NCBI GenBank assembly: GCA_049322255.1
Contig: JBMORE010000054.1
Span: 1 to 64,000 of the forward strand
Direction: 5' to 3'
Origin: Myxococcota bacterium
Lineage (GTDB): Bacteria; Myxococcota; Myxococcia; Myxococcales; Myxococcaceae
Length of the DNA stretch: 64,000 nt
Part shown: one piece after another, positions 33,099-51,670 of the stretch
Layout: every line of letters starts with the position of its first letter
Numbering within the stretch: position 1 is the stretch's first letter
Made by a program: the position numbers and the translations under genes
Notes under the pieces: model-generated
What the model saw: the letters and a program-made list of their open reading frames with translations, nothing else
Database searches by the model: none
Told to the model about the DNA's origin: nothing

Positions 33099-34792
33099 GG
33101 GGCCACCTCACCTCCGTCTTGGGGTTGGGAACCCTGCTGGCCGGCCTGACGGCGCTGATGGCGTCGACCCAGAGCGGCGACACCAAGCTTCATTCGGAGC
33201 TGCAGGAGCTCATCCGCACCTTCAAGCTCGTCCTCTCCGAGCACGACCGTCACGTGTTCGAGGCCTGGAACGGTTCGACGCTCCACTACGACGAGCTGGT
33301 GAAGGACCTGCGGCTCGCTCGGCGTCTGGAGCAAAGGCTCGGACCAAAAATGAGGACCGCCGAGGAAAGGGAGCACTTCGCCCGGCTTCAAAGAGCTCTT
33401 CGCGCGCTCGAATTCGAGCAGGAGCTGTTCAAGAGCAAGAGCTCGGTGCTCCGAAACTCATTGCAATACCTGCCCCGCTTGGCCCACGGGCTTCTCCAAG
33501 GCCTGACGACCGAAGAGGGAAGAGGGGTTCGCGACGTTCTCGATGACGTGGTGCTTGGCACGTTCGAATTCGTCACGACTCCGCAAGCGGAGAACGCGGA
33601 TAGGATCGAAGAGCGGCTGTTGCAGATCGAGACCCGAGGCGGTCAGTTCAAGAGGCTGGCCCAACATGCCCGTCACGTCATCGCCTTCACGGAGGCGAAC
33701 AGAAACCACGTCGCGCAGTTGACCAACGGCGAGGCCACCCGCCGGCTCGACGAGCTGAGCAAGCTTTTGGAAAACCAATTCACCCGTGAAGCCGAACGGG
33801 CCCACCTGGCGCGACGGGTGCTCTATGGCGTGGCGCTCCTGCTCCTGTGCTGGCTGGTCCTCACCCTCTTTCAGCTTCGGCACCGTGGGCTGACGCTCAA
33901 ACGAACGTTGGCGAACCTGCAGCTTCTCAACGACCGGCTCGAAGAGAAGGTAGCGGAGCGCACCGGCCAGCTCGAGCAAACCAACGGCGAGCTCAAAATG
34001 CGCATGGAGGAGCTCAAACAGACGCAGGAGAAGCTCATTTTCGCCGACCGCATGGCGGCGATGGGCCAGCTGGCCGCCGGAGTGGCCCATGAGGTCAACA
34101 ACCCCTTGGGCTTCGTCATCTCCAACATCGACTTCGCCTTGGGGGAGCTGACCGAGCACATCGCCGTCGATCCACGCAGCGCGGCTCCCGAGAGCGCGGC
34201 GCAGGAGCTACTCGACGCCTTGAAAGACGCCCGAACCGGCGCGCTGCGCGTGGCCAACATCGTGCGGGGGCTCAAGGCCTTCGCGCGGATCGACGAGGGG
34301 CACCACGAGGCGGTGGACGTCCGCCAGGCGCTCGACCAGGCGATTCAGTTCGCCAACCACGAGATTCGGCACCGGGCCCAGCTCATTCGCGACTACCACG
34401 AGGTGCCCCGCATCGAGGGCAACGAGGCGAAGCTGACCCAGGTCTTCCTGAACCTCCTCATCAATGCCACTCAGGCGATCGCTGAGGCCAAGGAGAAAAG
34501 CCACCAGATTCGGGTGACGACACGTCTCAGCCCCATGGGACAGGTGGTGGTGCAGGTGCAGGACACCGGTTGCGGCATGTCGCCCGAAGTCCAAAAGCAG
34601 CTCTTCAACCCCTTCTTCACCACCAAGCCGGTCGGCACCGGAACCGGGCTGGGGCTGTCGATCTGCCACGGAATCATCTCGGGAATGGGAGGCGCCATTT
34701 CGGTCGAAAGCGCCTCGGGGGAGGGAAGCACCTTCACCATCGCCCTCCCGGTCAACCCAGCCATGACGTACGCCTCGGAGCGCTCCTCGTGA
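33095..34792 (+). CDS. Membrane sensor histidine kinase with all-helical periplasmic (DAHL-like) domain
   Basis: Two TMs around a helical domain (HYDEL, FKSKSSVLRNSLQYLP); H-box AHEVNNP, NLLINA, DTGCG, FFTTK..GTGLGL; ATGA overlap with peroxidase gene. Confidence 0.88.
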   Translation: MRGHLTSVLGLGTLLAGLTALMASTQSGDTKLHSELQELIRTFKLVLSEHDRHVFEAWNGSTLHYDELVKDLRLARRLEQRLGPKMRTAEEREHFARLQRALRALEFEQELFKSKSSVLRNSLQYLPRLAHGLLQGLTTEEGRGVRDVLDDVVLGTFEFVTTPQAENADRIEERLLQIETRGGQFKRLAQHARHVIAFTEANRNHVAQLTNGEATRRLDELSKLLENQFTREAERAHLARRVLYGVALLLLCWLVLTLFQLRHRGLTLKRTLANLQLLNDRLEEKVAERTGQLEQTNGELKMRMEELKQTQEKLIFADRMAAMGQLAAGVAHEVNNPLGFVISNIDFALGELTEHIAVDPRSAAPESAAQELLDALKDARTGALRVANIVRGLKAFARIDEGHHEAVDVRQALDQAIQFANHEIRHRAQLIRDYHEVPRIEGNEAKLTQVFLNLLINATQAIAEAKEKSHQIRVTTRLSPMGQVVVQVQDTGCGMSPEVQKQLFNPFFTTKPVGTGTGLGLSICHGIISGMGGAISVESASGEGSTFTIALPVNPAMTYASERSS

Positions 34793-34796
34793 GCCA

Positions 34797-35936
34797 TCAA
34801 AACCCCGACAGCTTGGCGATGATCTCCTTCATGATCTCCGAGGTTCCGCCCCCGATGGTGAGGAGGCGAATGTCCCGCCAGGCGCGGGCGACGTCCGTCT
34901 CTTCGATGTAACCCATGCCACCGTAGAACTGCTGGCAGTCGTAGGCGACCTTCTGGGCGAGATCGCCCGCGAAGAGCTTGGCCATCGAGATCTCCTTCAC
35001 CGGGTTCTCCTTCTTGTCGAAGCGCTCGACAGCGAAGTAGGTGAGCCGACGCGCCGCCTCGATCGCCGCGAGGTGCTCGACGAATTGATGGCGCCACACC
35101 TGGAACTTGATGATCGGCCGTCCGAAGGCCTCCCGCTCGTGCCCGTAGGCGATGGCGTCATCCACCATCTGCTGCATGCCTTGGGTGGCGAGTATCGCCG
35201 CCACCAGCCGCTCGCCCTGGAAGTTGGTCATCACGTGGTAGAAGCCTTCGTTCTCCTTGCCCAGCACGTAGCGGGCGGGAATGCGGCAATCTTCGAAGTA
35301 GAGGATCGCCGTATCCGAGGAGAGGTGGCCCACCTTGTCCAGCTTCTTCGACACCCCGAAGCCCTTCACGTCGGTGGGGAAAGTCACCAGGGAAATGCCG
35401 CCGTACCCCTCCCCGCCGGTGCGCACCGCCAGGGTGATGAAGTCGCAGCGGGTGCCGTTGGTGATCCACATCTTCGAGCCGTTGATGACGTAGTCGTCGC
35501 CCTCCCGGCGCGCGGTGGTCTTGAGGTTGGCCACGTCCGACCCTGCGTCTGGCTCGCTCACCCCCAGGGCGGCGATTTTTTCGCCCGCCAGCGCCGGTGC
35601 GAGAAACTCCCGCTTCTGCTCGTCGGTGCCGATCTCGTTGATGATCGGCGTCGCCATTTGGCTCTGCACGAGCAGCGCCAAATTGACCCCGGCGTTGCGG
35701 CTGCGCACCAACTCCTCGCAGAAAACGGTCACGTACCAGTAGTCGAGCCCACTGCCGCCATACCGGGGATCGTGGTTGATGCCCAGAAAGCCCAGCTCCC
35801 CACACTTCTTGAACACCTCGCGGGGAAAGCTGCCCGCGCGGTCCCACTCCAAGGCATGGGGCGTCAGCTCCTTCTCCACGAACGCCCGCACCGTCTTACG
35901 AAACGCCTCGTGCTCCTCGGTGAAGAAGTTGGGCAT
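34797..35936 (-). CDS. Acyl-CoA dehydrogenase
   Basis: SEPDAGSD, INGSKMWITNG, R.AFG, GGMGY, IGGGTSEIMK. Confidence 0.95.
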   Translation of the reverse strand: MPNFFTEEHEAFRKTVRAFVEKELTPHALEWDRAGSFPREVFKKCGELGFLGINHDPRYGGSGLDYWYVTVFCEELVRSRNAGVNLALLVQSQMATPIINEIGTDEQKREFLAPALAGEKIAALGVSEPDAGSDVANLKTTARREGDDYVINGSKMWITNGTRCDFITLAVRTGGEGYGGISLVTFPTDVKGFGVSKKLDKVGHLSSDTAILYFEDCRIPARYVLGKENEGFYHVMTNFQGERLVAAILATQGMQQMVDDAIAYGHEREAFGRPIIKFQVWRHQFVEHLAAIEAARRLTYFAVERFDKKENPVKEISMAKLFAGDLAQKVAYDCQQFYGGMGYIEETDVARAWRDIRLLTIGGGTSEIMKEIIAKLSGF

Positions 35937-35942
35937 CTCTTT

Positions 35943-37292
35943 TTATGTCGGCTGGCAGAAGCCGTAGCCGGTGGGAGCGCCCTGCAACTGCACGCAGGTA
36001 TGCGCCTGCGGCACCTGCACACAGCTCTGATTGCCCACGCTGACGTCACAATAGGCGCGGCAGATGCCTGAGGTGCCTGCAGCCAAGCCGTTGCAATGCA
36101 GCGACGCGGGAGGGTTCGCCCGGAAGCAGGCCGCCGGTGCGGTGCACGACTGCCCTTCGGCGCGGGTGTCGGTGGGGACGGCGCAGTAAGCCACGGGGGT
36201 GGCTGCGGTACTGTCGAAGTAGCAAAAAGTCCCCGAAGGGCAGGCGGGGCTGCGCACGTCGCACGGGCGCCGGCAGGATTGCTGTAAGGGACTGGAGACA
36301 CACACCTCGGCGTCTTCGGTGGCGGTGGCGGGCTTGCACTCGGTGCCGCCACGGCCGCCACACTTGCACTTGCCGTCTTCGGGGTCGCATGAGGTGCCCC
36401 CTTCGCACGACTTGGTGCCGCCGTCGGGCAGGGTGCACTGCTGGCCGCCCTGACACTGCGCCGGAGGACCGAGCGAGCAGATCTGCACCGACGTACACAC
36501 CGGGCCGCCGGGACCGCCGCACTTGCACTGGCCGTCCACCGGGTCGCAGGTCGCTCCCCCCGCGCAGGTGACACCCGAGCAGCTGCTTCCCGGCCGGCAG
36601 GTACGCTGCTCGGGAGCGCACACGCCCCCGTCATTACCTGCGGGGCAGGCACACGCCTCACCACTTTGACAGATGAGGCCGTTGCACTTGCAAAAGCCGT
36701 CGGTCGGGTCGCAGACGTTGGCCCCGGCGCACGTCACCCCGGAGCACAGGCTGTCGACACAGGTCTTCTGCCCCCCGGCGCTGGAGGGCGAGCAGAACCT
36801 GCCAGGAGCGCACTCCTCGGCGCCACACTTGCAGCGGGAAGTGGCGGTGTCGCAGGTCTGGTTCTTCGGGCAGGCGACCTGGCTGCAGTCGAGGGCGGGC
36901 TCGCACTTCTTGGTGGCCGGGTTGCAGACGTCTCCAGTCGCGCATTCGGTTCCACCCGTCCCACCGCACTTGCACACCCCATCGTTGCCGTCGCAGCTGG
37001 TGCCGCCCGCGCAGGTGACGTTGGCGCAGCGGGTGGAAAGGCAGGTGTTGGAAACCGCATCGCAGACATAGGCTTCGGGGCACACCACGCCGCCCCTCCC
37101 GCCGCACTTGCACACCCCGTCGCCCGGGTCGCACACCAGCGGCGACTCGCAGCGGACGTTCTTCTCGGCGCAGACGTTTCGGCCACCCCCGCCGCAAGCA
37201 CCCGAGAGGGCGAGGACGACGGCGGCCCCCACGGCAGCGAAAAGCCACGGAGCGACGCGCCCGAAGGCACGGCGCGAATGAAGCGTATTCAT
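35943..37292 (-). CDS. Cys-rich repeat lipoprotein
   Basis: Lipobox-like LSGA/C; six CDxxDGxCKC(GGxGG)-type repeats. Confidence 0.8.
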   Translation of the reverse strand: MNTLHSRRAFGRVAPWLFAAVGAAVVLALSGACGGGGRNVCAEKNVRCESPLVCDPGDGVCKCGGRGGVVCPEAYVCDAVSNTCLSTRCANVTCAGGTSCDGNDGVCKCGGTGGTECATGDVCNPATKKCEPALDCSQVACPKNQTCDTATSRCKCGAEECAPGRFCSPSSAGGQKTCVDSLCSGVTCAGANVCDPTDGFCKCNGLICQSGEACACPAGNDGGVCAPEQRTCRPGSSCSGVTCAGGATCDPVDGQCKCGGPGGPVCTSVQICSLGPPAQCQGGQQCTLPDGGTKSCEGGTSCDPEDGKCKCGGRGGTECKPATATEDAEVCVSSPLQQSCRRPCDVRSPACPSGTFCYFDSTAATPVAYCAVPTDTRAEGQSCTAPAACFRANPPASLHCNGLAAGTSGICRAYCDVSVGNQSCVQVPQAHTCVQLQGAPTGYGFCQPT

Positions 37293-37405
37293 GGAGCCTC
37301 GGTTCCTTCTTGGCGGCCTGGCAGAGTCATGGCGTTTGCGAAAGCGGTGACTATTCGCCCATCGGGGCGCACCTGTAAAGGAGCTTCCCCTGGGCCCTTA
37401 AGGCC

Positions 37406-40400
37406 TCATCGCCGCCGCCGCCCGCGCCACGTCGCCAGTGCCCCCGCCAAAAGTCCCAAGAGCGAAGGGCCGAGCGCGGTGCCCGAGCAGCCTCCGGCCG
37501 GCACGAAGTCGGGGCGAACTTTGATCGACAGCCCGCGCACATCCTGCCGCCCTGCCCCGTCGGTCACCCGCACCAGGAAACTGAAGACGACCGGGCCCGC
37601 CTTGCCGTCTTTGCCCACGGCTGCGGGTGGAGCGGTGGGCACGCCGGAGAGCTGCCCCTGAGGGTCGAGAGTGAGCCCACCGGGCAGAGACTGGGTGAGG
37701 TCGACCGCGGCGCAGCCAAAGTCCGTCAGGTTGGGGTCGGCCTGCTTGACGCAAGGCACGGTGAACACCGCGTCGGTGACGGCGGCGCCGCCGTTGTGCG
37801 ACAGCCGCGCAGCATAGGGCTGGCCGACGAACGCATCGGGCAGCGCAGTGGTGGTGATGGCCAGCGCCTCCTCGTAGGAGACGTGGAGCGGCAGCGTGGT
37901 GATGTCCTCGGTGCCGGTGGCATCTTGCACGCGCAAGGTGACCGCGTACAGCCCGGCGCGGGTGGGCACGCCCCGCAAGAGGTCCTGCCCGGAGGCATCC
38001 TCCTCGATGGCCAACCCGAACGAAGGAGGCAAGCCCGTCTCGGCAGGCCCGGGCGCCTCGGTGGGGTTTTCGGCCAGCCGTTGGAACTTCACCACCGACC
38101 AGTCGTAGGGCGGCCTTCCGCTCAGCGCCTGCAGGGCCTGGCTGTAGTCTTTGTTCAGGTAGGCGGTGGCCAAGCGGGTGGTGGCGATCTGCATGCGGCC
38201 GGGAGTCACCACGCGAATGCGCAGGTCCTTCGCCGCCTGGGTACCGGCCTCATCGGTCAGCTCGACCCGGAAGGGGATCTCCCCCGACTCGCCCGGCCGG
38301 CCTTCGACGGTGCCGTCACTGGAGAGCGCCAAGCCCACCGGCAGCCGCGAATCGGCGGCCAGGCGCCACACGTAGGGCGGCTTTCCTCCCACGGCCACCA
38401 GCGTCGCGGTGTAGCTGCGCGAGAACTCGGCGGTGGGGAGCTCCTGGTCGACGATCGCCAACGGCAGCTTCGCCGGCGTCACCGTGAGCGAGAACTGGGC
38501 AGTGGCGGTGTCGGCGGCGCTCGTCACCTTCACTTCGAAGCCGTAGCTACCCGCCTCACTGGGGGTGCCGGTGAGCGTGCCGTTGGCCCCGAGAAGGAGC
38601 CCCGGCGGCAGCGCACCCGCGTTGAGCGCCCAGGCGTAGGTGCCGTTGCCTCCGGCAGCCTGCAGCGTCAGCCCGTAGGGGGCGAACTGAGTGGCCCCGG
38701 GAATCGACTGAGTGATGATCGCCAACGCCCCGGTGCTCACCACCACTCCTCCGGTGGCGGTGACACAGTTGTTGACCTCGCTGATCTCCTGCACGGTAGA
38801 CACCGGGTTACCCGCCGGATCGTGATCGACACACACGCCCAACCAGAACCGGCCGGCGGTGAGGTCGTTGGGAAGGGCGACCGAGTCTGTCTGGGTATCG
38901 GAGGCGTTGGCCGCCAGCCCCGCCACCGTTCCGGTGAAGAGCGCCCGATCGGAGACCGTCACCACCGAGTTGTCCGAGAGGAACACCGTGTACTTGAACG
39001 GCGCGCTCACCGCGGCGCTCCCGGCGTTGGTGAGCACCCGCGGCACGGCGATGGTCTGCCCAGGCACCGCCTGGGTGGGCCCGGAGATGGAGCTCACCGC
39101 CAAATCGGGCGTGGGCGGCGCCACGGTGAACTGTCTGGGGGCGAACGAGTTGTTGTTCTCGTCGAGCTCAGCCCAAAGCCCGTCGGGGTCGGCGCGGGCG
39201 AGGAGGAAATAGCTGCCCGGAGCGGTGGAGGGCGGAATCGGACCGCTGGCGCTGACCAACTGCTCGCCTCCCGGCCCCACGTCGATCGGCGTTGAGTCTC
39301 CCAGCACCGGGTCGCCCGCCTCCCAGGTGTTGTTGACCGAGAGGTAGAAACGCACGGTGGCGCCAGTGGCGGTGCGCCCGCCCACGTTCTTGAGGGTGGC
39401 GCTGGCGCGATAGGTAGCGCCCGCATAGCCGATGGAGTCGCCCGAGAGCGACGAGACCGTCAAATCTGCCGGGAGCACGAGATCGATCGCCTGATTCACC
39501 GGGAAGCTGGAGATCGCGCAGGCGCCCGAGCTGGGGGTGGTGCAAGTGAGCGCCGCGACCCCGGTGCCCGCCACTTTCTGTACCCCAACCGAGGCCGACG
39601 CCGAGCTCGGAGCGGTAGGCCCGTAGTTGAAGCGGATCTTCCCGTCGGCCTCGAAGAGGGTGATTTGAAAGCTGAACTTGGTGGTCGACCCATAGTAGAC
39701 GACGTCCCGCCACTCGAAGGTCACCGCGCGATTGGGGGCGGCTCCGGTGACTTTGTAGGAGATGCAGGTCTGCCCCGCGGCGCAACGTGTGCCGGCGGTG
39801 TCATCGAGATCATCCCACCAGGCGGCGATGAACGAGGTGGGCCCGGTGGTCGACGAGCTGGGAATGCCCGCGTTGATCCATTCAGTCGGGTCGCCGGCGA
39901 ACACCAGAAAGCCCAGCGCCGACACGGTGACCGAGGTGTGCATTTGGTCGTAGAATTTCACCGGGAAGGGCAACGTCACGGCCTGGCCGGAGAAGGGGTT
40001 GACGGCGCTCAGGTTGGTGCCCCCGGAGATCGGCTGCCACGCGGAGGCGACCGGCCCTTGAACCTGGTAGGTCAGTTGGGCCGATGCGGTGAAGGGCAAC
40101 AGCCCCAGCACGACGGCGGCGATCGCCTGGGCCGGCACCTTCCGCCGGCGCAAGAGCCAGAGCATCGGCATCAGCAAGAGCCACCACAGCCAGCCTCCCT
40201 TGCCGGGAGCCGTAGCGCAGCCTCCCCTGGGCGGGCTTTCCACCACCTCGAGGGTGAAAGCGCCCAGCCCGGTCGCGCCTGCACCATCGCTGGCCTCGAC
40301 CACGAAGTTGTACACTCCAACCACTCCGTCTTCGTCGGCCACCGCACCGGAGACGTTGCCTTGCTCATCCAGCGTCAGGCCCTTGGGGAGAGGCCCTGCG

Positions 40401-43400
40401 TACAGCTTGAAGCGAGGCGAGGCGGCGCCCACGGCGGCGATGGCGAAGCTCACCTCGTCGCCTGGGTGCAGGGCGGCGGGCGGGTTGACGGCGGCGAGAC
40501 GGAAGCGCACGGGGAACACGCGCAAGAGGAAGTCGGCCACGTCGATACGGCCCTTGCTGTCCTCCACCTGCAAGCTGAACGAGTAGGTCCCCGCCACCAA
40601 CGGCTTGCCTTGGAGGATGCCGCGCTCGTCGTCTTGGGTGACCAATTCCAGCCCGTCGGGGAGCGTCCCCGCCGCCACCGTCCACACGAGCGGTTTGGCC
40701 AGGGGGCTGCCGTCGGCGTTCTGCGCCTGCAGGTCGGAGAGGTAGTCGGAATTCACCAGGGAATCGGGCACCGCGAGGGTGCGGATGACGAGCGCGCTCG
40801 GCTCCACCACGCGAACCTTGAGCTCTTTTTGGCCGACGCTGCCCACACCGTCTTGCACCTGGAAGACGACCCGGGTCTCACCCACGGCCACGCCCGCGCG
40901 CACCGCGCCAACGAAGACTCCCTCGGCGTCCATGGTGATTCCGTTGGGGAGCGCGCCGGAAACCACGCTCCAGACGTAGGGTTTCACTCCGCCTGCTGCG
41001 CCCAGCGAGGCCTGGTAGGGAACCGTGGGGCTGTTGATGACCGGGGGCAGCGAAGCGGTGGTGATTTCCAGCTGGGTGGTGGTGGGCAGAACCCGAATGA
41101 CCAACCGCGCCGCCGCCGAGGTGGCACCAGCGGTGACCACCGCGGTGAAGGCGCTGACCGATGCCGCCGTCGGTGTGCCCGACACCAGCCCGTCGTTGCT
41201 CATGGTCAGCCCCGCGGGCAACGAGCCGGTTGCCGTGTCCACCGACCAAGCGAGGGGGCCCTGCGCGCCTGCAGCCACCAGCCGGAAGCTGTAGGGCCGG
41301 TCGATGACCCCGTCGGGGAGCTGCTGAGTGGTGATGCGCAGCGACGACGGCGCCACCTGCACCGTGGAGATCGACGCCCCTCCGTTGTTCGTCTCGTCCA
41401 ACTCGGCAGCGGCGTTGCCCGAGTCGACGATGGCTCCGATGTAGTAGGTGCCCGGAGGCATGGTGGGCGGCAGCTTCACCAGCTCGGTGGTGGTGCTCTC
41501 GGCGCCGACCGCCAACGTCACCGTGCCGGACTCGGAAGTGGAGCCGTTGGCGCCGACGATCGCCAGCGGAACGTCATCGGGGGTGATGATGTCGTTTGCC
41601 GAAGCGTAAAAGCGGTACGCCACCGCCTCGCCGTCGACGTTGCCGATGTTCTTGAACGTACGGAACACCGGCATCGCCTCACCCACCGCGCCGCTGGAAG
41701 GAGCCTCCACGCGCGTCACCGTGTAGTCCTGCGCAGGAGCGCGCAGGAGGACCGGCCCCAACGAGAGGCTGTTGTTGCTCTCCGAAAGCTCGGCCACCTC
41801 GCCAAAGCTGTCGAGGATGGCGAAGAGGTAGTAGTTGCCAGTAACGAAGTCCTTGTTCGTCCGGTCCTTGAGCGGGACGGTGTAGCTGAAGGTCACGGTG
41901 GTGGCACCGCCCGCCGCCACCTGCGCCACCGGCTCGTCGTGAGCGATGGTGTCGGAGAGCAGCGAGAGGTTGTTGTCGGCCGAAATCGCCACCCCGATGC
42001 GGAAGTTGTTGGCGGTGGCGCCGCCGATGTTGCGGAAGGTGACACTCAGGCGGCCCACTTGGCCGAAGTGGCCGACCCGCGTCGGTGCCCCGGTCACCGG
42101 ATCGAGCACGTCCACCAGCTCGATCTCCAGATCGGCCTGCTGCATCGTCACCTGCGCCGCCGAGACGGCCACGTTGTTGGTCTCGCTCGCCTCGGTGACC
42201 GACCCGGCGGAATCCACCTGGAGCAGGTAGTAAAGCGTCCCCCCGAGCACGTTCTGCGGCACGGTGAAGGTGACGTTCTCATCGAAGGTTTGCCCGCCGG
42301 TGACTGCACGGGTGGCGCCGTAGAGGACGTAGTCAGAGGTCTCGAGGGTGTTGTTGCTCGACAACCAAATCTTGAATTCCACCGGGCCGCTGGGTGCGCT
42401 GGTGCCCTGGTTGAACCATTTGACGTTGACGGTGATGTTGCTCCCCGGCCCGGAGAGCGCCGGACCGGAGACGCTGGTCGCCACCAGGTCGACGCCCTGG
42501 GTGAAATAGTTGGCGGTGCTGCCCACGTTGTTCGACTCCGAGGCCTCGGTGACCACGTTGGTGTGGTCGGCCTGCACCAACACGTAGTACTGGCCGGGCG
42601 GAGGCAGCGGCGTGGAGGCGTTGCCCGAAGCGCTCGCAGTCGATGTCGCCGCCACGCTGACCGGAGTGGTGGCGGTGAACGCCAGCACGTCTGCGCCGTC
42701 GAGCACCCGGTCGGTCGACAGATAGGCGCGCCAGAGGAAGTTGTTCGCCGGGTTCTGCCCGAAGTTACGGAACACCGGCGAGACGGTGAAGGTGAGCGAA
42801 CTTCCGCTCACCATGTTCGACAGCCCCACCGAGTCGAGAGCGAGGTCGGGCTGCACCGGCTGACCGATGGTGATGATCTGGTTGGTCGGCCAGGAGCCCT
42901 GACCGCACGTGGGCGAACAGCTCAACACCGCCGCGCCCTGAGAGCCGGTCTGATTCTCGAACCCCACTGCCGCCGCCGGAGTACCACCGGTGTGCGTGCC
43001 GTAGTGGAATTGGATGAGGCCGGAGCTGGTGAGCTTGACCTGGAAGCTCATCGATGAGCTGGACGTGACGAAGTAGCTCCAGTCGAACCACTCGATCACC
43101 AGCTCCCCCGCCGTAGGCGCGGCCCAACGTACCTGGGCTGTGGTTTTCAAGCCTTCCAGATCTTCCCACCAGGGAGCCACCACCGAGTGGAACACACCCG
43201 ACGTGCTGGGGAGAGAACGATTGGAGAAACAGAAGCTCGTGCAAGCCGAGGGCGGAAGGGTGATGAAGCCGTTCGCATGAATGGTCACCGAGTTGTACGT
43301 CTGGCCGTAGAACGGAAAATTGAACGGCAGGGCGATGGTGGCGCTCCCCTCGTCCGGGTCGGAAAGGGTGACGTTGGTGCCGCCCGTCAGAGGCACGTAG

Positions 43401-43504
43401 GCCTGTGCCGTGGGCGAGGAAACCGTATACACCTGCGCTTGCGCGAGCCCGCCCCATACCGCCGCCGCCAGGAGGGTCGCTCCGAGGAGCTTCGTGCCGT
43501 TCAT
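37406..43504 (-). CDS. Giant surface protein: two NIDO-like + CARDB + putative-Ig modules, internal and terminal MYXO-CTERM-like tags
   Basis: Start MNGTKLLG (signal AQA/Q); CARDB DL....E.NN units; Ig units LP.G..L...G..SG.P; internal GGC-TM-RRRK-TM-ASA/Q; terminal GGC-TM-RRRR. Confidence 0.85.
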   Translation of the reverse strand: MNGTKLLGATLLAAAVWGGLAQAQVYTVSSPTAQAYVPLTGGTNVTLSDPDEGSATIALPFNFPFYGQTYNSVTIHANGFITLPPSACTSFCFSNRSLPSTSGVFHSVVAPWWEDLEGLKTTAQVRWAAPTAGELVIEWFDWSYFVTSSSSMSFQVKLTSSGLIQFHYGTHTGGTPAAAVGFENQTGSQGAAVLSCSPTCGQGSWPTNQIITIGQPVQPDLALDSVGLSNMVSGSSLTFTVSPVFRNFGQNPANNFLWRAYLSTDRVLDGADVLAFTATTPVSVAATSTASASGNASTPLPPPGQYYVLVQADHTNVVTEASESNNVGSTANYFTQGVDLVATSVSGPALSGPGSNITVNVKWFNQGTSAPSGPVEFKIWLSSNNTLETSDYVLYGATRAVTGGQTFDENVTFTVPQNVLGGTLYYLLQVDSAGSVTEASETNNVAVSAAQVTMQQADLEIELVDVLDPVTGAPTRVGHFGQVGRLSVTFRNIGGATANNFRIGVAISADNNLSLLSDTIAHDEPVAQVAAGGATTVTFSYTVPLKDRTNKDFVTGNYYLFAILDSFGEVAELSESNNSLSLGPVLLRAPAQDYTVTRVEAPSSGAVGEAMPVFRTFKNIGNVDGEAVAYRFYASANDIITPDDVPLAIVGANGSTSESGTVTLAVGAESTTTELVKLPPTMPPGTYYIGAIVDSGNAAAELDETNNGGASISTVQVAPSSLRITTQQLPDGVIDRPYSFRLVAAGAQGPLAWSVDTATGSLPAGLTMSNDGLVSGTPTAASVSAFTAVVTAGATSAAARLVIRVLPTTTQLEITTASLPPVINSPTVPYQASLGAAGGVKPYVWSVVSGALPNGITMDAEGVFVGAVRAGVAVGETRVVFQVQDGVGSVGQKELKVRVVEPSALVIRTLAVPDSLVNSDYLSDLQAQNADGSPLAKPLVWTVAAGTLPDGLELVTQDDERGILQGKPLVAGTYSFSLQVEDSKGRIDVADFLLRVFPVRFRLAAVNPPAALHPGDEVSFAIAAVGAASPRFKLYAGPLPKGLTLDEQGNVSGAVADEDGVVGVYNFVVEASDGAGATGLGAFTLEVVESPPRGGCATAPGKGGWLWWLLLMPMLWLLRRRKVPAQAIAAVVLGLLPFTASAQLTYQVQGPVASAWQPISGGTNLSAVNPFSGQAVTLPFPVKFYDQMHTSVTVSALGFLVFAGDPTEWINAGIPSSSTTGPTSFIAAWWDDLDDTAGTRCAAGQTCISYKVTGAAPNRAVTFEWRDVVYYGSTTKFSFQITLFEADGKIRFNYGPTAPSSASASVGVQKVAGTGVAALTCTTPSSGACAISSFPVNQAIDLVLPADLTVSSLSGDSIGYAGATYRASATLKNVGGRTATGATVRFYLSVNNTWEAGDPVLGDSTPIDVGPGGEQLVSASGPIPPSTAPGSYFLLARADPDGLWAELDENNNSFAPRQFTVAPPTPDLAVSSISGPTQAVPGQTIAVPRVLTNAGSAAVSAPFKYTVFLSDNSVVTVSDRALFTGTVAGLAANASDTQTDSVALPNDLTAGRFWLGVCVDHDPAGNPVSTVQEISEVNNCVTATGGVVVSTGALAIITQSIPGATQFAPYGLTLQAAGGNGTYAWALNAGALPPGLLLGANGTLTGTPSEAGSYGFEVKVTSAADTATAQFSLTVTPAKLPLAIVDQELPTAEFSRSYTATLVAVGGKPPYVWRLAADSRLPVGLALSSDGTVEGRPGESGEIPFRVELTDEAGTQAAKDLRIRVVTPGRMQIATTRLATAYLNKDYSQALQALSGRPPYDWSVVKFQRLAENPTEAPGPAETGLPPSFGLAIEEDASGQDLLRGVPTRAGLYAVTLRVQDATGTEDITTLPLHVSYEEALAITTTALPDAFVGQPYAARLSHNGGAAVTDAVFTVPCVKQADPNLTDFGCAAVDLTQSLPGGLTLDPQGQLSGVPTAPPAAVGKDGKAGPVVFSFLVRVTDGAGRQDVRGLSIKVRPDFVPAGGCSGTALGPSLLGLLAGALATWRGRRRR

Positions 43505-43591
43505 CTGTCTTCTCTCTTCTGCTTTTTCAAGAACTGGCACTTAGGGGGCACCGTCCTACCCCCAAGCACCACGAGGTCCATGAGGTGAGCG

Positions 43592-46500
43592 TCAGTAGCA
43601 GCTCACGTAATACGTGATGGTCAACGTGTCGCCCGGCTCGGGGACGAACATCGGCTCGAAGTTCACCGAGTTCGCTACGGAGTCGTACGTCCACACCGCC
43701 TGTCCGCGCGAGTCGACCTGCGGCATGTCGACACCGTTGATCTTCACCACGATCACCTTGCCGCCGGTCAGGTCGGGCACCGCGTTCAAGAAGAAGTTGG
43801 TGCGGAAGCCAAAGGCGGTCTTGCCCAGCTGCTCGAGCGACTTCGACCAGTCAGGGGTGCAGATGCTCTCCTTCACTCCGTTGGTCTGGGTGACCATCGA
43901 GGCGTAGCGGCCGTCGTCGGCGTAGGCGTTGCAGCCCGAGGGTGCCGAAGTGAAGAAGCCGGCGATCGCATTGACGGTGAACATGTTCGCCCGCTTGATG
44001 CCCTTGATGTTCAAGAACTGGTTCAAGTAGTAGGTCACCGGCTGCGGCGACTGCTCGAGCTCGTCGGTGATGCAGACGATGGCGAGGGCGGCGTCGTTGC
44101 GCAAAAACCCGGCATTGTCCGCGGTGATGAGCGGCGCGCTGAGCGCCTTGAGCGCCGGCTCGAAGCACATCTCGCTGGCGCTCCCGTTGATGCCCAAGTT
44201 CACCTTGGCCTTGAACTTGTTCTGCACGTCCGGGGTGGTGGGAGAGAGAATCTTCTCTGGATGCGACGCCCCGGTCATCAGCTTGCCGGCGTTGGTGTAG
44301 TTGTCGGTGGCGATGACCCCGATGTGGTAGTCGACGTTGGCCGACACGGCGAACTGAATGAAGGAGGCGAAGTTGTTCGCCAGCGCCTGCTGCTCGTCGC
44401 TCATCGAGCACGAGTTGTCGATGGTCAAGAGGATGTCCGCCTTCGGCTTGGCGTCCTGGGTGAAGACGTCGGTGTTGAGGCCGATGGTGTCGCCCTTGCC
44501 CTGCAAGGTCACGATGTAGGTGACGTTCTGCCCCGCCTGCACGGCGTTGATCGCGATTGCTCCCGAGTCGGAGCCCAAATCGATGGGGGCGTACTTGGCG
44601 GTGAAGGTGGTGGGCGTGGCGCCCGGGTTCACCGTCAGCCCGCCGGTGGGAATGGCCGGGGTGGAGACGAGCATGAACTCGGGGCAAGGCAGCGCGCTGG
44701 CGCAGTTGGGCCCGCCCGCCGGCTGCCCCGCCGCCGCCTGCATGGCAAAGCTGTTGATGGTCACCGGGCTGGTGCAGGTGTTGTAGATGCTGAAGGTCTT
44801 GGTGAGCGAGTTGCAGCCGCGCTGAACGGTGCCGAAGTCGAGGTCATTGGGGGCGATGGTGAGGCACCCGTTGGCGATCGCCGAGGTGAGCGACACCAGC
44901 TTCTGCGGCTGGGTCGGCGAGGACATGAAGAACTCCACCTGCCCGGTGGCGTTGGTGATGGCCGCAGGCACCTGCCCTTGCGGCCAGGCGCGCACGGTCA
45001 CCACCATCGACTCCTGCGGCTGCAGCTCACGCGAGGCCACGGTGCCCGCGGGCAACGAGTAGACGGGGTCGGTCCCCGCAGCGACGTCCAGGTTCGAGAG
45101 CAGGCAGGTTTCGCCCGCGTTCTGCCCCAGGTTCTTGATGGTGAAGGTGAGGTCGCGGTAGCTGGGCGGGGTCACCAACCCGAAGTTGAGCGCGGTGGGA
45201 GAGACCGAGTAGTTGCAGGGCGGCAGGAGCACCGCGTCGGCGGTGACGGTGATCTTCACTGCGGCCTCGTCGGGGTCATTGGAGTAGATGGTCACCTCCC
45301 ACTGCTTGGAGATGCCCGCCTGGGTGGCGTTGCTCGGAGTCACTTTCACCACCAGGTCGACCAGGTTCTTACCCGCCGAGGCCTCCAGCCCCAGGCTGGG
45401 GTTGTAGGAGTTGGCGCCGCTGACCGGCAGGGGGAGGATTTCAATCTCGCTCGGCGCTGAGTCGCTGTTGAGGGGGACGATGTCCCAGTAGTTGCCGCCC
45501 GCTCCGTTGGGCAAGAGCTTCAAATTCGCGTTGGGGTCGGGGATGGCCGGCCGGGTGCCCACGTTCATCACCGTCAGCTTGCGCGTCTGGAAGGAGCTCG
45601 CACCGCTGAAGTAGGCCACCTTGCCGAAGTTCAACGTCGGCGAAGGAACGACGTTGATGTCCGGACCGCCGCCGAAGCCTTTGAGCCCCACCGCCCCGGT
45701 CGCCTGCCGGGCCAAGGTGGTGCTGAAGGTGAGCTGCGAGGTCCGGGGGCCGAGCACGGTGGGCTTGAACGAGAGCACCAGCTTGGCCGTGCCGCCTCGG
45801 CCTGCCACGGTGAGGGTGGTCGGATCCGCTCCGGTGGCCACGACCACCTTGAACTCCGCGGGGGCGAGAGTCTTGATCTGGCTCAGCTGCACATCCAAAA
45901 GCCCGGCGTTGGTGAAGGTCAGCTCCTGGGTGATTTCGATGCCCGGAGTGACGTAGCCGAAGTCCACCGGGTTGGGAGCCCAGGTGAGCACGCTGTCGAC
46001 GCCCACACCCTTCACGGTGATGGCGAGCTCGGGGCACTGCTCCGCAGCACGGGCCTTGAAGAAGGCCAGGTACGAGCGGGACTCGGTGGGAGAAAAGCCG
46101 ATCACCACCTTCTTCTCCGTGTTGGGGGCGATGCTCACGGTGCCCTTGGCCGACTCGGGCTCGAAGGCGAACGAGAGCGCATCGCCGCCGTAAATCTCCC
46201 CCACGGAGGCGGTCGCGGGCAGCTGGGTGGGGTTCTTGAGAGGAAACTCCTGCTTCAAGGTGTCGCCCTTGGCCACGCTGCCGAAGTCGATGACCTTGGG
46301 CAACTCGCACACGCCGCTGACCGCCTTGCCCTTCAGGGTGATGATGGCAGTGTCCTTGCCCGCTTCGGCGTTGGCCGCGCGCAGCACGAGGGTCACCGAG
46401 TGGTCGACGATCTTCTCGACGTCGTTCTGCGGCGCGCGGAAGGTCATCTCGAACTCGACCACCTCGGCAGGGCCGACCGGCGAGGGAGAGAATTGAATGT

Positions 46501-46813
46501 CGAAAACCGGCGCCGGCTCGACGACGCCGCCGCTGATGGCCACCGCGTCGCCCGCCTCTTTCTCCAGCCGCTCGAGGTCGAGAGCGCCCAACCCGCCGTT
46601 GGTCACGCGCAGCTTGAGCTTTTGCTCCTGGCCCATGAACACCGAGCCGAAGTCGTAGATGGCGTCGCGATCGGTCTTGGCCACCCCGTCGACCTCGTAG
46701 ATGACCCCCAAGTCGCCGTTTCGCGTTTGGATGTCCGAATCGGGCCGGCAACGGCAACCGGAAACCACCAGGGCAAAAGCCACAGCAACGCCAGCGATTC
46801 GCGTGAAGCTCAT
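43592..46813 (-). CDS. Large lipoprotein with tandem Ig-like (choice-of-anchor D/ASH-type) domains and C-terminal VWA domain
   Basis: Start MSFTRIAG, lipobox VSG/C; repeated DFG.V..N.G units; VWA MIDAS DILLTIDNSCSM, ITDE. Confidence 0.82.
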   Translation of the reverse strand: MSFTRIAGVAVAFALVVSGCRCRPDSDIQTRNGDLGVIYEVDGVAKTDRDAIYDFGSVFMGQEQKLKLRVTNGGLGALDLERLEKEAGDAVAISGGVVEPAPVFDIQFSPSPVGPAEVVEFEMTFRAPQNDVEKIVDHSVTLVLRAANAEAGKDTAIITLKGKAVSGVCELPKVIDFGSVAKGDTLKQEFPLKNPTQLPATASVGEIYGGDALSFAFEPESAKGTVSIAPNTEKKVVIGFSPTESRSYLAFFKARAAEQCPELAITVKGVGVDSVLTWAPNPVDFGYVTPGIEITQELTFTNAGLLDVQLSQIKTLAPAEFKVVVATGADPTTLTVAGRGGTAKLVLSFKPTVLGPRTSQLTFSTTLARQATGAVGLKGFGGGPDINVVPSPTLNFGKVAYFSGASSFQTRKLTVMNVGTRPAIPDPNANLKLLPNGAGGNYWDIVPLNSDSAPSEIEILPLPVSGANSYNPSLGLEASAGKNLVDLVVKVTPSNATQAGISKQWEVTIYSNDPDEAAVKITVTADAVLLPPCNYSVSPTALNFGLVTPPSYRDLTFTIKNLGQNAGETCLLSNLDVAAGTDPVYSLPAGTVASRELQPQESMVVTVRAWPQGQVPAAITNATGQVEFFMSSPTQPQKLVSLTSAIANGCLTIAPNDLDFGTVQRGCNSLTKTFSIYNTCTSPVTINSFAMQAAAGQPAGGPNCASALPCPEFMLVSTPAIPTGGLTVNPGATPTTFTAKYAPIDLGSDSGAIAINAVQAGQNVTYIVTLQGKGDTIGLNTDVFTQDAKPKADILLTIDNSCSMSDEQQALANNFASFIQFAVSANVDYHIGVIATDNYTNAGKLMTGASHPEKILSPTTPDVQNKFKAKVNLGINGSASEMCFEPALKALSAPLITADNAGFLRNDAALAIVCITDELEQSPQPVTYYLNQFLNIKGIKRANMFTVNAIAGFFTSAPSGCNAYADDGRYASMVTQTNGVKESICTPDWSKSLEQLGKTAFGFRTNFFLNAVPDLTGGKVIVVKINGVDMPQVDSRGQAVWTYDSVANSVNFEPMFVPEPGDTLTITYYVSCY

Positions 46814-47015
46814 GTTCGTCTCCGCTCCCCTCGGCCAGCGGGGAGGCTGGGTAAAAGGCCGTGGATGGTGCCGATTTCGCACTTGGAGGTCAAGGGGCCC
46901 ACCTCGCCCTACCCCGCCCGCCAGTTCTATACCTAGGCAGATTGTCGTAGGGCGAGCGCGTCCAGTTGCCTACCCTGGCGCACATCCAGCAGTTTCAGTG
47001 GGTTGGCTAAAGGAC

Positions 47016-49937
47016 CTAGCGACGGCGGCGAAGGGCGAGCGCCAGTGCGGCCAGAGCCCACAGGGAGGCAAGCTCCGGTGGCCCTCCCGTACAACCACAA
47101 CCGCCCTTGGGTGGCGCTCCACCGACAACCTCGGTCGTGAACGGCGCGAGCGCGCGGGAGCCGTCCACCGATGTGGCGAGCACGGTGAAGTTGTAGACGC
47201 CCAGCTGCGCCTCCTCGGCCACCGTGCCCCCGACGACGCCTTCGCTGCTCAAGGAGAGCCCCAACGGCAGGCGGCCCGAGTACAGGCCAAAGCTGGCCTG
47301 GGCACCGGCCAAGGAAAGTGCCGCCGAGACCTCCTGACCACGGTAAAGCTGTTCCGGCACCGTCCCCGTCACCTGGGCGGAGTTGGAGTAGACGACCAGC
47401 ACGAAGTCGGCCACGTCGCTGCGGCCCTTGCCGTCGCTGACTTGTAGGGTGAAGGGGAAGTTCCCGGCCCGGGTAGGCACACCGCGAATCAAGAGCACTT
47501 CGTCGGTGGGCTCGAGCAAAAGACCTTGCGGGAGCCCCCCGCCCACCACCGCCCATTCGATGGGCTGACTCACCGGACTGGAATCGGCGTTCTGGGCGGC
47601 GACGTCGATGAGGTACTCCGAGCCGACGTTGCCCGGCGGCAGCACCAGGGTTTTGATGAGGAACGAGCTCGCGTCGACGACGGCCAGGGTGTAGGCGCGC
47701 ACCTCGCTGTTTCCCGCCCGGTCGCGGACCCTGAGGGAAAAATCAGCGGTGGTGCCAATGACATCGCTGGGCACCCCGGAGAGAGCCCCCGATTCGGAAA
47801 GAACGAGCCCGGTGGGCAGCCGCCCCGACTCCAGCGACCAGGTGTAGGGGCCGATCCCTCCCTGCGCTGAGAGGAAGTGCTCGTACGCGACCAGGCGCAC
47901 CGCCGGCGGGAGCTGGCGAGTGGTGATGGTGAGCGAGGCGGTGAGCGGAACCACCCGCAAGACCAGACGCGCCTCGACCGACTTTTGCCCCGAGGTGACC
48001 ACCACCGAAAAGACGGCGGTGGTGGAGGCGGAGGGGGTGCCGTGCAGGAGGCCGCTCGCGTCGAGGGTCAACCCCGCGGGGAGGTCTCCGGCGTTGGGCT
48101 TGAGGGCGAACGAATAGGTGCCGTCACCGCCCGCTGCCGCGAGCCGATAGTCGTAGGGCAACCCCAGCACCGCGTCCGGCAGCGAGGGGTTGGTCACCCG
48201 AAGCGCTTGCGCGACGACCTCCACCGTCTGCGAGGCCAGAGCGTTGTTGGCCTCGGAGATTTCCAGCACGGCCCCGCTGCCCCCCGGCTCAGCGGGGTCG
48301 ACCAAGACACCGAGGTAGTAGGTGGCAAACGGCGTCCCCGAAGGGACTCGGACGACATCGGTGGCCGAATCCTGCTCCCCCACCCCGAGCGTCACCGTGC
48401 CCCCGGTCGATTCGCCAGCGGCGGTGACGACGTGGAGCGGCACGTCGTCGAGGGTGATGATCGAATTGGCCGAAAGAAAGTACCGGTACGCTGCCGGGCC
48501 CGCGTCGCGGTTGCCGGAGTTGCGCACCGTGCGGCTGACCACCATCAGCTCCCCCGCGCCCACCCTGGAGGGGCCGGCGAGCGCGGTGGCGATGAGGTCG
48601 GGCGCCGGTCCACGAACCTTGGTGGGGCTCGAGCGGTTGATGTTGTTGAAGGTCGACGTCTCCGAGAGCCCCACCGCGGTGGCCGCGGCGAAGAAGGAGA
48701 AGTCGCCCGGTACCAGGCTGGCCCCGCCCGCGGTCGTGCTGGGCACCGGCGCGGTGAGGCTGACCACCATCGTCGCCCCTGGCCCGAGGGTGAGGTTTCG
48801 TACGTCACCGATGAACGGATCGTTGAACGCGTTCAGCGTCTCGTTTTCCGAGAGGTAGAAGGCCACCTCGAAGTTGGTGGCGGTGGCGCCGCCCACGTTG
48901 GCGACGGTGACGTCGAGGCGAACGTTCTCGCCGAAGAACGCAGCCTCGGCGGGGCCGTGGGGCGGGGTGGGGTCGAGCACCAGCACCGGATCGACCGAGA
49001 GATCGGCCTGACGGGCGTTGAAGGTGGTCGGACTGGCGACGACGTTGTTCCCCTCGGCCGCCTCGAAAATGGCGCCCGCCGACGGCCCGTCATCGAGCTG
49101 CAAAAGGAAGTAGTAGTTCCCGGTGGGGACGGAGCCGGGCAGGTTGTAGGAGACGTCGGTGTCGACCGTCTGCCCACCGGTGAGGGTCATCGATCCCTGG
49201 TGCACCAGATAGTCCGTGGCGCTCCAGAGCACGTCGCTCGAGAGCCAAACCTTGTAGTCCACNNNNNNNNNNNNNNNNNNNNNNNNNNNNNNNNNNNNNN
49301 NNNNNNNNNNNNNNNNNNNNNNNNNNNNNNNNNNNNNNNNNNNNNNNNNNNNNNNNNNNNNNGGGTCCTCGATGCCCGCGCTGGCGGAGAGCAGCTGGCC
49401 GGCGCCGGTGAGCGGACCGTAGTAGAGCTCGATCAAGCCGTTCTCCCACAGCCGCACCTGAAAAGTGAGGGAGTAGAACGAGGTCGCGTGGAAGTGGTTC
49501 CACTCGCTCCACTCGATGGCGATGCCCGCGCCGTCGGGCCCGGTGAGCGCCTCGGAGCGCAGGCGGCTCAAAGGGTTGGTGCCGGCGAGGTCGTCCCACA
49601 GCGGGGCGATCACCGCCTGAGGAGTGCCCGCGTAGGGAATGGGGCGATTGAGCGACAGCACACTGGTGTACGGCTCGAAGTGAATCAGCCCGTCGGAGGA
49701 GACGGTCACCTGGGTGTATGCCCGGTTGAAGTACGGGAAAGTGAATCCCAGCGGAAGGGTGACGCGCCCCTGATCGACGGGGTTGCTCCCTGTGAAGACG
49801 GGCTGGAGTGCGAGCGTCGTCGGCGCGCTCAACGCTGGATAGGTCACGTTGTTGGTGGTGGTGGCGAGGTACGTCTGGGCAGACCCCCACCCTGCGCTCA
49901 AGAGCACGGTCGCCAGAGCGATTCGCTGCAAGGACAT
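47016..49937 (-). CDS. Stand-alone NIDO-like + CARDB + putative-Ig protein with MYXO-CTERM (interrupted by assembly gap)
   Basis: Start MSLQRIALATVLLSAGWGSA/Q with AGGA upstream; collinear with module 1 of 37406-43504; C-terminal KGGCGC-TM-RRRR. Confidence 0.8.
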   Translation of the reverse strand: MSLQRIALATVLLSAGWGSAQTYLATTTNNVTYPALSAPTTLALQPVFTGSNPVDQGRVTLPLGFTFPYFNRAYTQVTVSSDGLIHFEPYTSVLSLNRPIPYAGTPQAVIAPLWDDLAGTNPLSRLRSEALTGPDGAGIAIEWSEWNHFHATSFYSLTFQVRLWENGLIELYYGPLTGAGQLLSASAGIEDXXXXXXXXXXXXXXXXXXXXXXXXXXXXXXXXXXVDYKVWLSSDVLWSATDYLVHQGSMTLTGGQTVDTDVSYNLPGSVPTGNYYFLLQLDDGPSAGAIFEAAEGNNVVASPTTFNARQADLSVDPVLVLDPTPPHGPAEAAFFGENVRLDVTVANVGGATATNFEVAFYLSENETLNAFNDPFIGDVRNLTLGPGATMVVSLTAPVPSTTAGGASLVPGDFSFFAAATAVGLSETSTFNNINRSSPTKVRGPAPDLIATALAGPSRVGAGELMVVSRTVRNSGNRDAGPAAYRYFLSANSIITLDDVPLHVVTAAGESTGGTVTLGVGEQDSATDVVRVPSGTPFATYYLGVLVDPAEPGGSGAVLEISEANNALASQTVEVVAQALRVTNPSLPDAVLGLPYDYRLAAAGGDGTYSFALKPNAGDLPAGLTLDASGLLHGTPSASTTAVFSVVVTSGQKSVEARLVLRVVPLTASLTITTRQLPPAVRLVAYEHFLSAQGGIGPYTWSLESGRLPTGLVLSESGALSGVPSDVIGTTADFSLRVRDRAGNSEVRAYTLAVVDASSFLIKTLVLPPGNVGSEYLIDVAAQNADSSPVSQPIEWAVVGGGLPQGLLLEPTDEVLLIRGVPTRAGNFPFTLQVSDGKGRSDVADFVLVVYSNSAQVTGTVPEQLYRGQEVSAALSLAGAQASFGLYSGRLPLGLSLSSEGVVGGTVAEEAQLGVYNFTVLATSVDGSRALAPFTTEVVGGAPPKGGCGCTGGPPELASLWALAALALALRRRR
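49263..49362. other. Assembly gap (100 N placeholder)
   Basis: Run of exactly 100 n. Confidence 0.99.
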
Positions 49938-50000
49938 CGAAACCGTTCCTTTCGAAGGCCGGCGCCACGAAAGCTTATATGCCAAACTCCACCGATAGAC

Positions 50001-51080
50001 ATGACCGCGTGGCTCGCCGCTGCAGTCCTTTTCGCCGCTCCTGCCCGTGGGAAGGCGCACGACACGCTGCACCAGCAGTGCCTCCTCTACGCCGCCGATC
50101 CCAAGAACCCCTGGGCGCTCGCGCACGGCATCACCGCGCTGGGGCCGAAGTTCGCCGCCGCCGATGGTCGAGTCGCCTCCCAGGTCATCGTGGGCGACTT
50201 CTTGAAAAAGGGCGGCCCCCCCGAGGGCAACCCCTACTCCTTCGATCGCTACGCACCCGACCGCACTCCCATCGAGCCCCACTCCAACCTGCAGGTGAAG
50301 ACGCTGGTGCTCGCGGGAGTGCCGCTCACCACGTCGTTCCCGGCGCCGTTCGGCAAGGTGACGCTGCAAGAGCTTCTGCGCGGAGTGGAGCGCGGCTTTC
50401 GCCACGTGCCACAGAACGAGGCCTACTGGCGGGAGGTGGCGTGGACGTTGGACCTGCTCTCGGCCACGCGGACGCCGGCGAAGGCCTCCTTCCAACACGG
50501 CGGCGGCGAAGCGGTCGACTTCCAAAGGGTGATGGACGATGCGCTGACCTATTTGGAGTCGGCGCAACAGGAGATCGCCGAGGGCATGGACAAGGGCCTG
50601 GCGCGCGTGGACAAGCGAAAGCAAGGCATCTACGCCCACACCTGCGGCGGGTTGCACTTGTTCCAGGCGGTGGCGAGCTGGGCGCGCTTTGCCGAAGTGA
50701 AGAAGAAGTGGGGCAAGCGCCTCGACCGGCAAATCGACGTGCTGTTCTACCGGCTCGACTCCGAGGCCAAGCAGTACGAAGAGGCGCTGCAGAAGGCGCC
50801 GCAATACAAGCTGCAGCTGCTCACCCAGATGGTGAAGTTCTACGGCCACTTCCTCGAGACCACCGGGCGGCTCAAGGTGGAGAACCGCTTCGTTCCGAGC
50901 AAGGCTCAGCGCCAACAGATCGCCAAGGCCAAGGCGCTCCTCGATTGGGCGGTGCGCGAACTGGAGGCGCAGAAGGCGTTCGCCTCGATGGAACAGCTCA
51001 AGGCCTCCCAACCGCAGATCTACCTCGATCTCATCGGCGACGCCTGTCATGCCGCACACGGCCTTGCCTATTGGAAGTGA
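50001..51080 (+). CDS. Exported hypothetical all-helical protein
   Basis: Start MTAWLAAAVLFAAPA; motifs NPWALAHG, HTCGGLH, KFYGHFLE, GDACHA; upstream part of the 1067-aa ORF call is shadow. Confidence 0.75.
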   Translation: MTAWLAAAVLFAAPARGKAHDTLHQQCLLYAADPKNPWALAHGITALGPKFAAADGRVASQVIVGDFLKKGGPPEGNPYSFDRYAPDRTPIEPHSNLQVKTLVLAGVPLTTSFPAPFGKVTLQELLRGVERGFRHVPQNEAYWREVAWTLDLLSATRTPAKASFQHGGGEAVDFQRVMDDALTYLESAQQEIAEGMDKGLARVDKRKQGIYAHTCGGLHLFQAVASWARFAEVKKKWGKRLDRQIDVLFYRLDSEAKQYEEALQKAPQYKLQLLTQMVKFYGHFLETTGRLKVENRFVPSKAQRQQIAKAKALLDWAVRELEAQKAFASMEQLKASQPQIYLDLIGDACHAAHGLAYWK

Positions 51081-51121
51081 ATGGAGCGCCTCTGTATCAT
51101 GACACCCAAGAAGGAAGTCGT

Positions 51122-51670
51122 ATGAGTCATCGAGCAGTCGCGGCGGTCGTCACCACGGTCGCCGCCGGCATCGCGTTTGCGGATCCACCTTGTGCCGCAC
51201 CCCCGCTGCCTGAAAAAGCTGTGCAAGACATCATCGAGAAGGAACGCCGGACCCGGACTGACCTCCCGTCGGCGTTCAAGAAGGCCAGCTGGACGGTGAC
51301 ACGACGTGGCTGTCACTACACCGCCATCGAGTCCATGCTCCCTCCGACACCCGAGGCGAGCCACATCTTCACGCTGAACCAACACGGAGCAATCGTCGAT
51401 GTGATCATCGGCAACTCCCCAGAAAGCCCGCTTCGGTGCCCCGACAAAGTGCTCACCGAGCTCCAGCTTGCGCAAGTCGTGAAGAGCGAGCGTGCCAAAC
51501 GCCCCGGTCTCCATGCCCCCTTCCCGAAGTCCAAGACCAGAGTCGTCCGCCAGCGCTGCCTCTTCCTCTATTTCGAGTATGCGCTGCCGGAACGTCGAGG
51601 CGACTACCAGGTCTTCACCATCGATCCTCTGGGTGAGTTGATCGACGCCTCCAGAAGCCAACCCTACTGA
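51122..51670 (+). CDS. Exported protein with two tandem ~75-aa homologous domains
   Basis: Signal MSHRAVAAVVTTVAAGIAFA/D with AGGA upstream; duplicated C..ER..R..L..F..V.R..C..E..LP..FT..G..D. Confidence 0.7.
   Translation: MSHRAVAAVVTTVAAGIAFADPPCAAPPLPEKAVQDIIEKERRTRTDLPSAFKKASWTVTRRGCHYTAIESMLPPTPEASHIFTLNQHGAIVDVIIGNSPESPLRCPDKVLTELQLAQVVKSERAKRPGLHAPFPKSKTRVVRQRCLFLYFEYALPERRGDYQVFTIDPLGELIDASRSQPY

Follow-up and report, generated by a model that had tools for sequence, protein, structure and literature searches.

MXAN_5598 of Myxococcus xanthus carries an internal MYXO-CTERM after a large adhesin region; a gene fusion was proposed, and its N-terminal part was proposed to be processed and surface-anchored (Guo, Haft, Wall, mBio 2025, PMC11980579; passages on this protein). 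The same protein also appears among the vesicle proteins named in a part of another paper. The protease MrtX was reported to cleave TraA in a Cys-dependent manner; lipidation and type II export of MYXO-CTERM proteins were proposed, lipidation still being put forward as a hypothesis, and the tests of MrtX described in the passages concerned were made on terminal tags only (PMC11980579). The preliminary description of the locus reported here had stated that no account of such an arrangement was known; this was too strong, as an internal MYXO-CTERM with proposed processing had been printed for MXAN_5598 (PMC11980579).

The locus was analyzed in a 64,000-nucleotide stretch of DNA of a Myxococcota bacterium (the window; GCA_049322255.1, contig JBMORE010000054.1, positions 1 to 64,000). 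One open reading frame holds, in this order, a signal peptide, module 1, an internal MYXO-CTERM, a second signal peptide, module 2 and a terminal tag (Table 1). Its product is quite probably a secreted polyprotein that would be cut by signal peptidase I and myxosortase into anchored proteins of ~111 and ~89 kDa.

The locus and its junction

Table 1. Features of the polyprotein locus (positions in the window; residues numbered from the GTG codon)
Feature	Position	Strand	Remarks
Polyprotein ORF	37406..43540	(-)	2044 codons from GTG, stop-free
Likely start ATG, Met13	43504	(-)	database protein P0002 begins there, 2032 aa
First signal peptide, residues 13-35, ends AQA	43436..43504	(-)	read from sequence; like 16 family N-termini (sites by eye)
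Module 1, residues 36-1108: NIDO-like head, 4 CARDB, 4 Ig (He_PIG)	40217..43435	(-)	
Internal MYXO-CTERM, residues 1106-1134: GGC with Cys1108, hydrophobic helix, RRRK	40139..40225	(-)	
Second, internal signal peptide, residues 1131-1154: RRRK n-region, h-region, Pro at -6, ASA	40079..40150	(-)	
Module 2, residues 1155-2018: NIDO-like head, 2 CARDB, Ig repeats	37487..40078	(-)	
Terminal MYXO-CTERM-like tag, residues 2016-2044, Cys2018, ends RRRR	37409..37495	(-)	
Conserved upstream gene, choice-of-anchor D repeats, probable lipoprotein	43592..46882	(-)	NF012200 102.7 bits, cut-off 45
Conserved downstream Cys-rich lipoprotein, lipobox LSGAC, separate gene in window	35943..37292	(-)	
Stand-alone module-1 paralog, ends in MYXO-CTERM + stop	47016..51059	(-)	

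Domains and masses: module 1 has four CARDB and four He_PIG stretches by Pfam, module 2 has two CARDB and three He_PIG (four Ig domains had been assigned to it earlier); NIDO (PF06119) was weak (24.5 bits, gathering score 25). Modules 1 and 2 align at about 30% identity over 485 and 679 columns; homology had been claimed earlier for their mature N-termini. The head domain was not recognized by the fold search, whose matches were all Ig/cadherin-like and confined to the Ig part (best E 4e-4). A role of the modules as adhesins may be supposed from these domains. Computed masses: Gln36-Cys1108, 111 kDa; Gln1155-Cys2018, 89 kDa; about 115 and 90 kDa had been expected.

Neighbouring genes: the C-terminal domain of the upstream gene gave weak MIDAS-adhesin/CglD matches (NF052240, NF033765), far under cut-off. 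The Cys-rich lipoprotein (35943-37292) matched no Pfam or NCBIfam family; it is tied to the polyprotein locus, with 55-68% identity among family copies. A 100-N gap at 49263-49362, the sole N run in the window, takes out part of the paralog at 47016-51059; adjoining this paralog is a 346-aa ORF (window 50040-51080 (+)) with no NCBIfam family, a 43% relative of which stands beside the polyprotein gene of locus L059. A scan of 34500-51500 gave 3 promoter-like and 10 terminator-like sites (0.8 and 10.8 expected); the only promoter-like site within the polyprotein ORF lies on the opposite strand.

The earlier placing of the junction at 40076..40234 holds to the letter, with the first nucleotide of PPRGGC at 40234 and the last of Gln1155 at 40076. 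GC3 across it is 0.78-0.94. The internal tag stands 910 residues before the C-terminus, at 1106-1134 of 2044, only the second tag being terminal; when cut out it scored 23.9-26.4 bits with TIGR03901 (cut-off 20) and 19.1-21.5 with TIGR03382 (cut-off 15.85), in agreement with its earlier reading as a complete MYXO-CTERM. Scored within the whole protein it gave 16.9 bits (TIGR03901), under cut-off. Its likeness to the tag ending the same ORF was confirmed for the anatomy and not for the score, the terminal tag reaching 11.1 bits, below the model cut-off.

Comparison of junctions: in 26 hand-read junctions (25 genomes) the succession of Cys, helix, basic loop, hydrophobic stretch and small-x-small was found in one frame in every case; excised internal tags passed a curated cut-off in 22/26, and module-2 tags under the same treatment in 13/23, though the window's is below it. 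The conserved internal tag followed by a putative signal, which the preliminary description had suggested looking for in homologs, is present. The tag Cys (Cys1108) is invariant in 25/25 aligned rows; the loop contains 3-8 basic and no acidic residues (26/26); the distance from Cys to the predicted cut is 39-59 residues, in frame at all 26 junctions. At the next junction, 17 loci with a stop gave frame offsets 0, 1 and 2 in 4, 4 and 9 cases. The predicted internal cut has Ala at -1 (25/26), Ala at -3 (22/26) and Gln at +1 (19/26); the same residues occur in 15, 15 and 15 of 16 true N-terminal signals of the family. A weight matrix from these 16 signals ranked the internal site first in 23/26 proteins (951-2398 positions); the matrix is small and includes +1 Gln, its cut sites were picked by eye, and the ranking tolerates two residues. 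In the AlphaFold model of residues 1011-1362 (mean pLDDT 86.9) an Ig domain is followed by two helices, modelled with low to moderate confidence; the predicted cut falls in a coil of low confidence, and the head domain begins immediately behind it.

These motifs bear on the number of cuts. A single cut at the hairpin would leave one partner on the surface and one in the periplasm: either signal peptidase I releases module 2, module 1 being left in the inner membrane on the uncut hairpin, or MrtX releases module 1 and the hairpin stays on module 2. Such an outcome is allowed for by the fact that MrtX has only been proposed to process tags that carry a long C-terminal extension, and that mrtX mutants keep uncleaved substrates, part of which reaches the surface (PMC11980579, passages on both points); it is unlikely in view of the invariant Cys, of internal tags scoring at least as high as terminal ones, and of AxA/Q sites like those of true signals.

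Start codons in the first helix: the window has a TTG at Cys+14 (anti-SD pairing -9.3 kcal/mol, spacing 13) and ATGs at Cys+16 and +18 (anti-SD -4.9), and MPMLWLLRRRK would make a workable n-region. Module 2 might then be made mostly from an internal start (MPML), giving two nested proteins and no polyprotein processing. No ATG, GTG or TTG was found in 4/26 junctions and in 6/29 of an overlapping set (CTG not counted); the position and presence of start codons vary between relatives, and an internal start would not keep the two modules in frame. This alternative, raised in the preliminary description, is most improbable and fails for the family, the start codons not being conserved; in the genome of the window itself a second start may exist.

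Occurrence among relatives

A first search with a 434-residue junction query gave open junction frames in relatives of many genera. A junction profile was then built from the rows of 25 relatives and run against 363 genomes of the order; 120 matches were obtained in 85 genomes. All 75 junction-spanning matches are stop-free (74 genomes including that of the window, six families; 25 rows had built the profile). A stop is carried by 21/120 matches, all of which end by model position 134 and comprise the end of module 1 and the tag only; ten of these 21 were inspected and all were stand-alone module-1 genes, with no module-2 gene adjoining them in the surrounding DNA retrieved. The search, whose counts are floors, gave no junction in genera g13 (0/21), g16 (0/18), g22 (0/8), g30 (0/11) and g62 (0/8), several of them large-genome genera of the family, nor in families f7 (0/92) and f8 (0/34). 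A locus search of named genomes gave only 6 distant NIDO-like loci, from the matched parts of which the junction is absent.

Protein database search: 48 matches, some of them the same genes as in the genome profile count; 40 contained the hairpin, among them every one of the 37 with a query coverage of >=92%, and in the other 8 the Ig repeats alone were aligned. The sources are mostly MAGs of Myxococcales or Myxococcaceae, and the proteins are labelled 'Ig domain' or 'CARDB domain'. The gene order is kept: choice-of-anchor D lipoprotein, polyprotein, Cys-rich lipoprotein, acyl-CoA dehydrogenase. The genomes are kin and not independent, so the counts show persistence and not repeated invention; by these comparisons the fusion is old and widespread.

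Recent stop loss or an assembly error in the window genome was weighed against these data. The assembly is of metagenome type (196 contigs), and the sole run with the DNA (X1) may be its source; no RNA run was among the holders of this DNA. A contig of this run, possibly the source of the window, covers 38426-43600 with one differing letter, no gap and no difference at the junction. The junction is open in 73 other genomes of six families, and the module subtrees are broadly congruent. An assembly error at the junction was rejected on the open junction in relatives together with the continuous X1 contig; recent stop loss, named in the preliminary description, fails for the family, in which the fusion is open in 74/363 genomes. 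Taken together, either event is hardly credible. A joint in an X1 contig that leaves out 40128-40281, with only 23 letters to one side of it at 85% likeness, was set aside: joints of this kind are frequently due to other organisms, and the main contig runs unbroken through this part.

Further arrangements were seen in these searches. In family f3, loci L060, L061 and L062 hold tandem trios of free module-2-like genes, the complete ones each with its own MYXO-CTERM. The upstream choice-of-anchor D lipoprotein gene is repeated in tandem 2-3 times at L033, L036, L041, L111, L112 and L124. At L117:7277-10114 (+) a 946-aa lipoprotein-like ORF is made up of a Cys-rich start, a NIDO-like head and the C-terminal portion of what the upstream gene encodes; this is domain shuffling among genes of polyprotein-type loci. 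More module-1 paralogs read through the same hairpin into another unit (L120:4314-7985 (+); P0048). A second tag-plus-signal hairpin occurs in the genome of the window (L074:6987-8066 (-), G000 contig C170), in a 359-aa protein with a HELGH motif, which we take to be zinc-protease-like, an internal GC-helix-RVRR tag (TIGR03901 17.8 bits, below cut-off), a signal ending ARA, and ~95 residues.

Natural variants and proposed processing

Free and deleted forms: two genomes (G003, G271) lack module 1; here module 2 comes after the upstream gene and possesses a start codon of its own and a signal ending ALA/Q and AFG/Q, respectively; both signals end at the Gln homologous to the internal site. In P0037 the module-2 head and first CARDB are deleted and the signal is retained. 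A quick maximum-likelihood tree, computed from 65 Ig blocks, has one branch parting module-1 from module-2 units (SH-aLRT 91), with broad congruence between the two subtrees and free genes nested inside both. This tree, made without a formal test, suggests an old fusion with free copies arising later. Frameshifts were met in module 2 of L057 and in module 1 of L033, L042 and L045 (error or real break).

Three-unit forms: a second hairpin, ending in a lipobox, joins the Cys-rich lipoprotein as third unit at L043, L046, L048, L057, L113, L114 and L115, and in the database proteins P0003, P0037, P0041 and P0042; the stop before this lipoprotein is kept in the window and at least 16 other loci. 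The fusion state varies between close relatives, as the three-unit P0003 is 56% identical to the window protein over the query. A further unit in G337 begins at a GTGA overlapping the stop after the Arg cluster, which shows how small the step between split and fused is.

Fused and free forms alternate at this second junction among near relatives with the lipobox Cys kept, and this interchange is the strongest argument for cutting, since it is most simply understood when cut and separately made products are alike. It also bears on a reading in which the hairpin is never cut and the product is an inner-membrane protein with two large periplasmic arms linked, the motifs being relics of fusion. 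A helical hairpin around a basic loop is nothing unusual in a membrane protein, and the long persistence of the fusion could mean that linkage is needed; relics should nevertheless be lost in the course of 30-60% divergence, whereas Cys and AxA have stayed, and the second hydrophobic stretch is short, with Pro within -7..-4 in 22/26 junctions. An uncut hairpin is accordingly rated decidedly improbable.

Processing by two cuts is the reading preferred here, and topology, both cuts, lipidation and surface display are stated as predictions. The N-terminal signal would direct the chain to Sec and module 1 would enter the periplasm; the helix of the internal MYXO-CTERM would halt transfer, RRRK staying in the cytoplasm. 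The same RRRK would serve as n-region of the following hydrophobic segment, export would restart, and module 2 would be translocated and held by the terminal tag. Signal peptidase I would cut at ASA/Q1155, and MrtX after the probably lipidated Cys1108 and Cys2018, a 46-residue hairpin being discarded; two lipid-anchored adhesin-like proteins would then reach the surface via the type II secretion system. In three-unit relatives the lipobox of the second hairpin would be processed by Lgt/LspA. The genome of the window (G000) encodes MrtX (364.7 bits, cut-off 180) and, both above cut-off, GspD and LepB; it gave 39 TIGR03901 matches, 22 of them over cut-off. The out-in-out polyprotein first proposed for this ORF fits every comparative test run; its cleavage is the part that we infer.

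The fusion may have arisen by stop loss between adjacent operon genes. It is proposed to persist because the cut products equal those of the separate genes, and because going back would take both a new stop and a new start. A 1:1 ratio of the modules follows from the gene structure, but this ratio may not be what maintains the fusion. A wider reading is on balance favoured, its three parts being taken jointly: the tag-loop-signal hairpin would be a general reversible polyprotein linker in myxobacteria, one chain being threaded out-in-out, and twice so in three-unit forms; up to three envelope proteases (signal peptidase I, myxosortase, lipoprotein signal peptidase) would make separately anchored surface proteins from it; and adjacent operon genes would fuse and split with products unchanged.

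If the proposed processing is true, bacterial Sec restarts export of an 860-residue domain after a sorting tag, myxosortase acts on internal tags, and two proteases share one hairpin. The hairpin is also a candidate linker for obtaining two secreted proteins from one gene. The family makes a good test case, since members of one, two and three units exist in it alongside natural deletions, and the comparative support that it offers for a bacterial secreted polyprotein is unusually good. With annotation as single 'Ig domain' or 'CARDB domain' proteins, the surface proteomes of these uncultured myxobacteria would be miscounted.

Comparison with known systems

FbcH of Bradyrhizobium japonicum, a cytochrome b-c1 precursor, is reportedly encoded by one gene and yields two proteins, said to be parted at an internal signal-like linker by signal peptidase. 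It differs from the present polyprotein in consisting of respiratory membrane subunits, in having two units only, and in being without a C-terminal sorting tag or second protease.

In flavivirus and pestivirus structural polyproteins an anchor helix is followed by a signal sequence, which is cut by host signal peptidase. They share with the myxobacterial polyprotein the stop-transfer helix, basic loop, internal signal, signal-peptidase cut and tandem units; they are made at the eukaryotic ER and their anchor helix stays on the product, whereas here MrtX is predicted to remove the helix. The viral comparison is an analogy only.

With the ordinary MYXO-CTERM/MrtX system (TIGR03901, TIGR03382, NF040593; TraA model) the polyprotein shares the Cys motif, helix, Arg cluster and N-terminal signal; it is unlike this system in that one tag is internal, and in that the Arg cluster of this tag doubles as the start of a signal peptide. 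A literature search of titles and abstract openings, subscription papers lying mostly outside it, gave no description of a sorting tag fused to a signal peptide; the words 'internal', 'polyprotein' and 'fusion' are absent from the Haft preprint.

MXAN_5598 remains the nearest case. Its processing is likewise a proposal, and the passages of PMC11980579 that deal with it name no second signal peptide, though Table S1 of that paper may show one. The C-terminal part of MXAN_5598 is an outer-membrane barrel with OmpA (TraB-like); the C-terminal half of the polyprotein is composed of NIDO-like, CARDB and Ig domains with a terminal tag, has no barrel or OmpA, and in relatives is extended by a lipoprotein unit. 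The basic idea thus has a printed precedent in MXAN_5598, from which the polyprotein differs by the second homologous tagged protein and by the third units.
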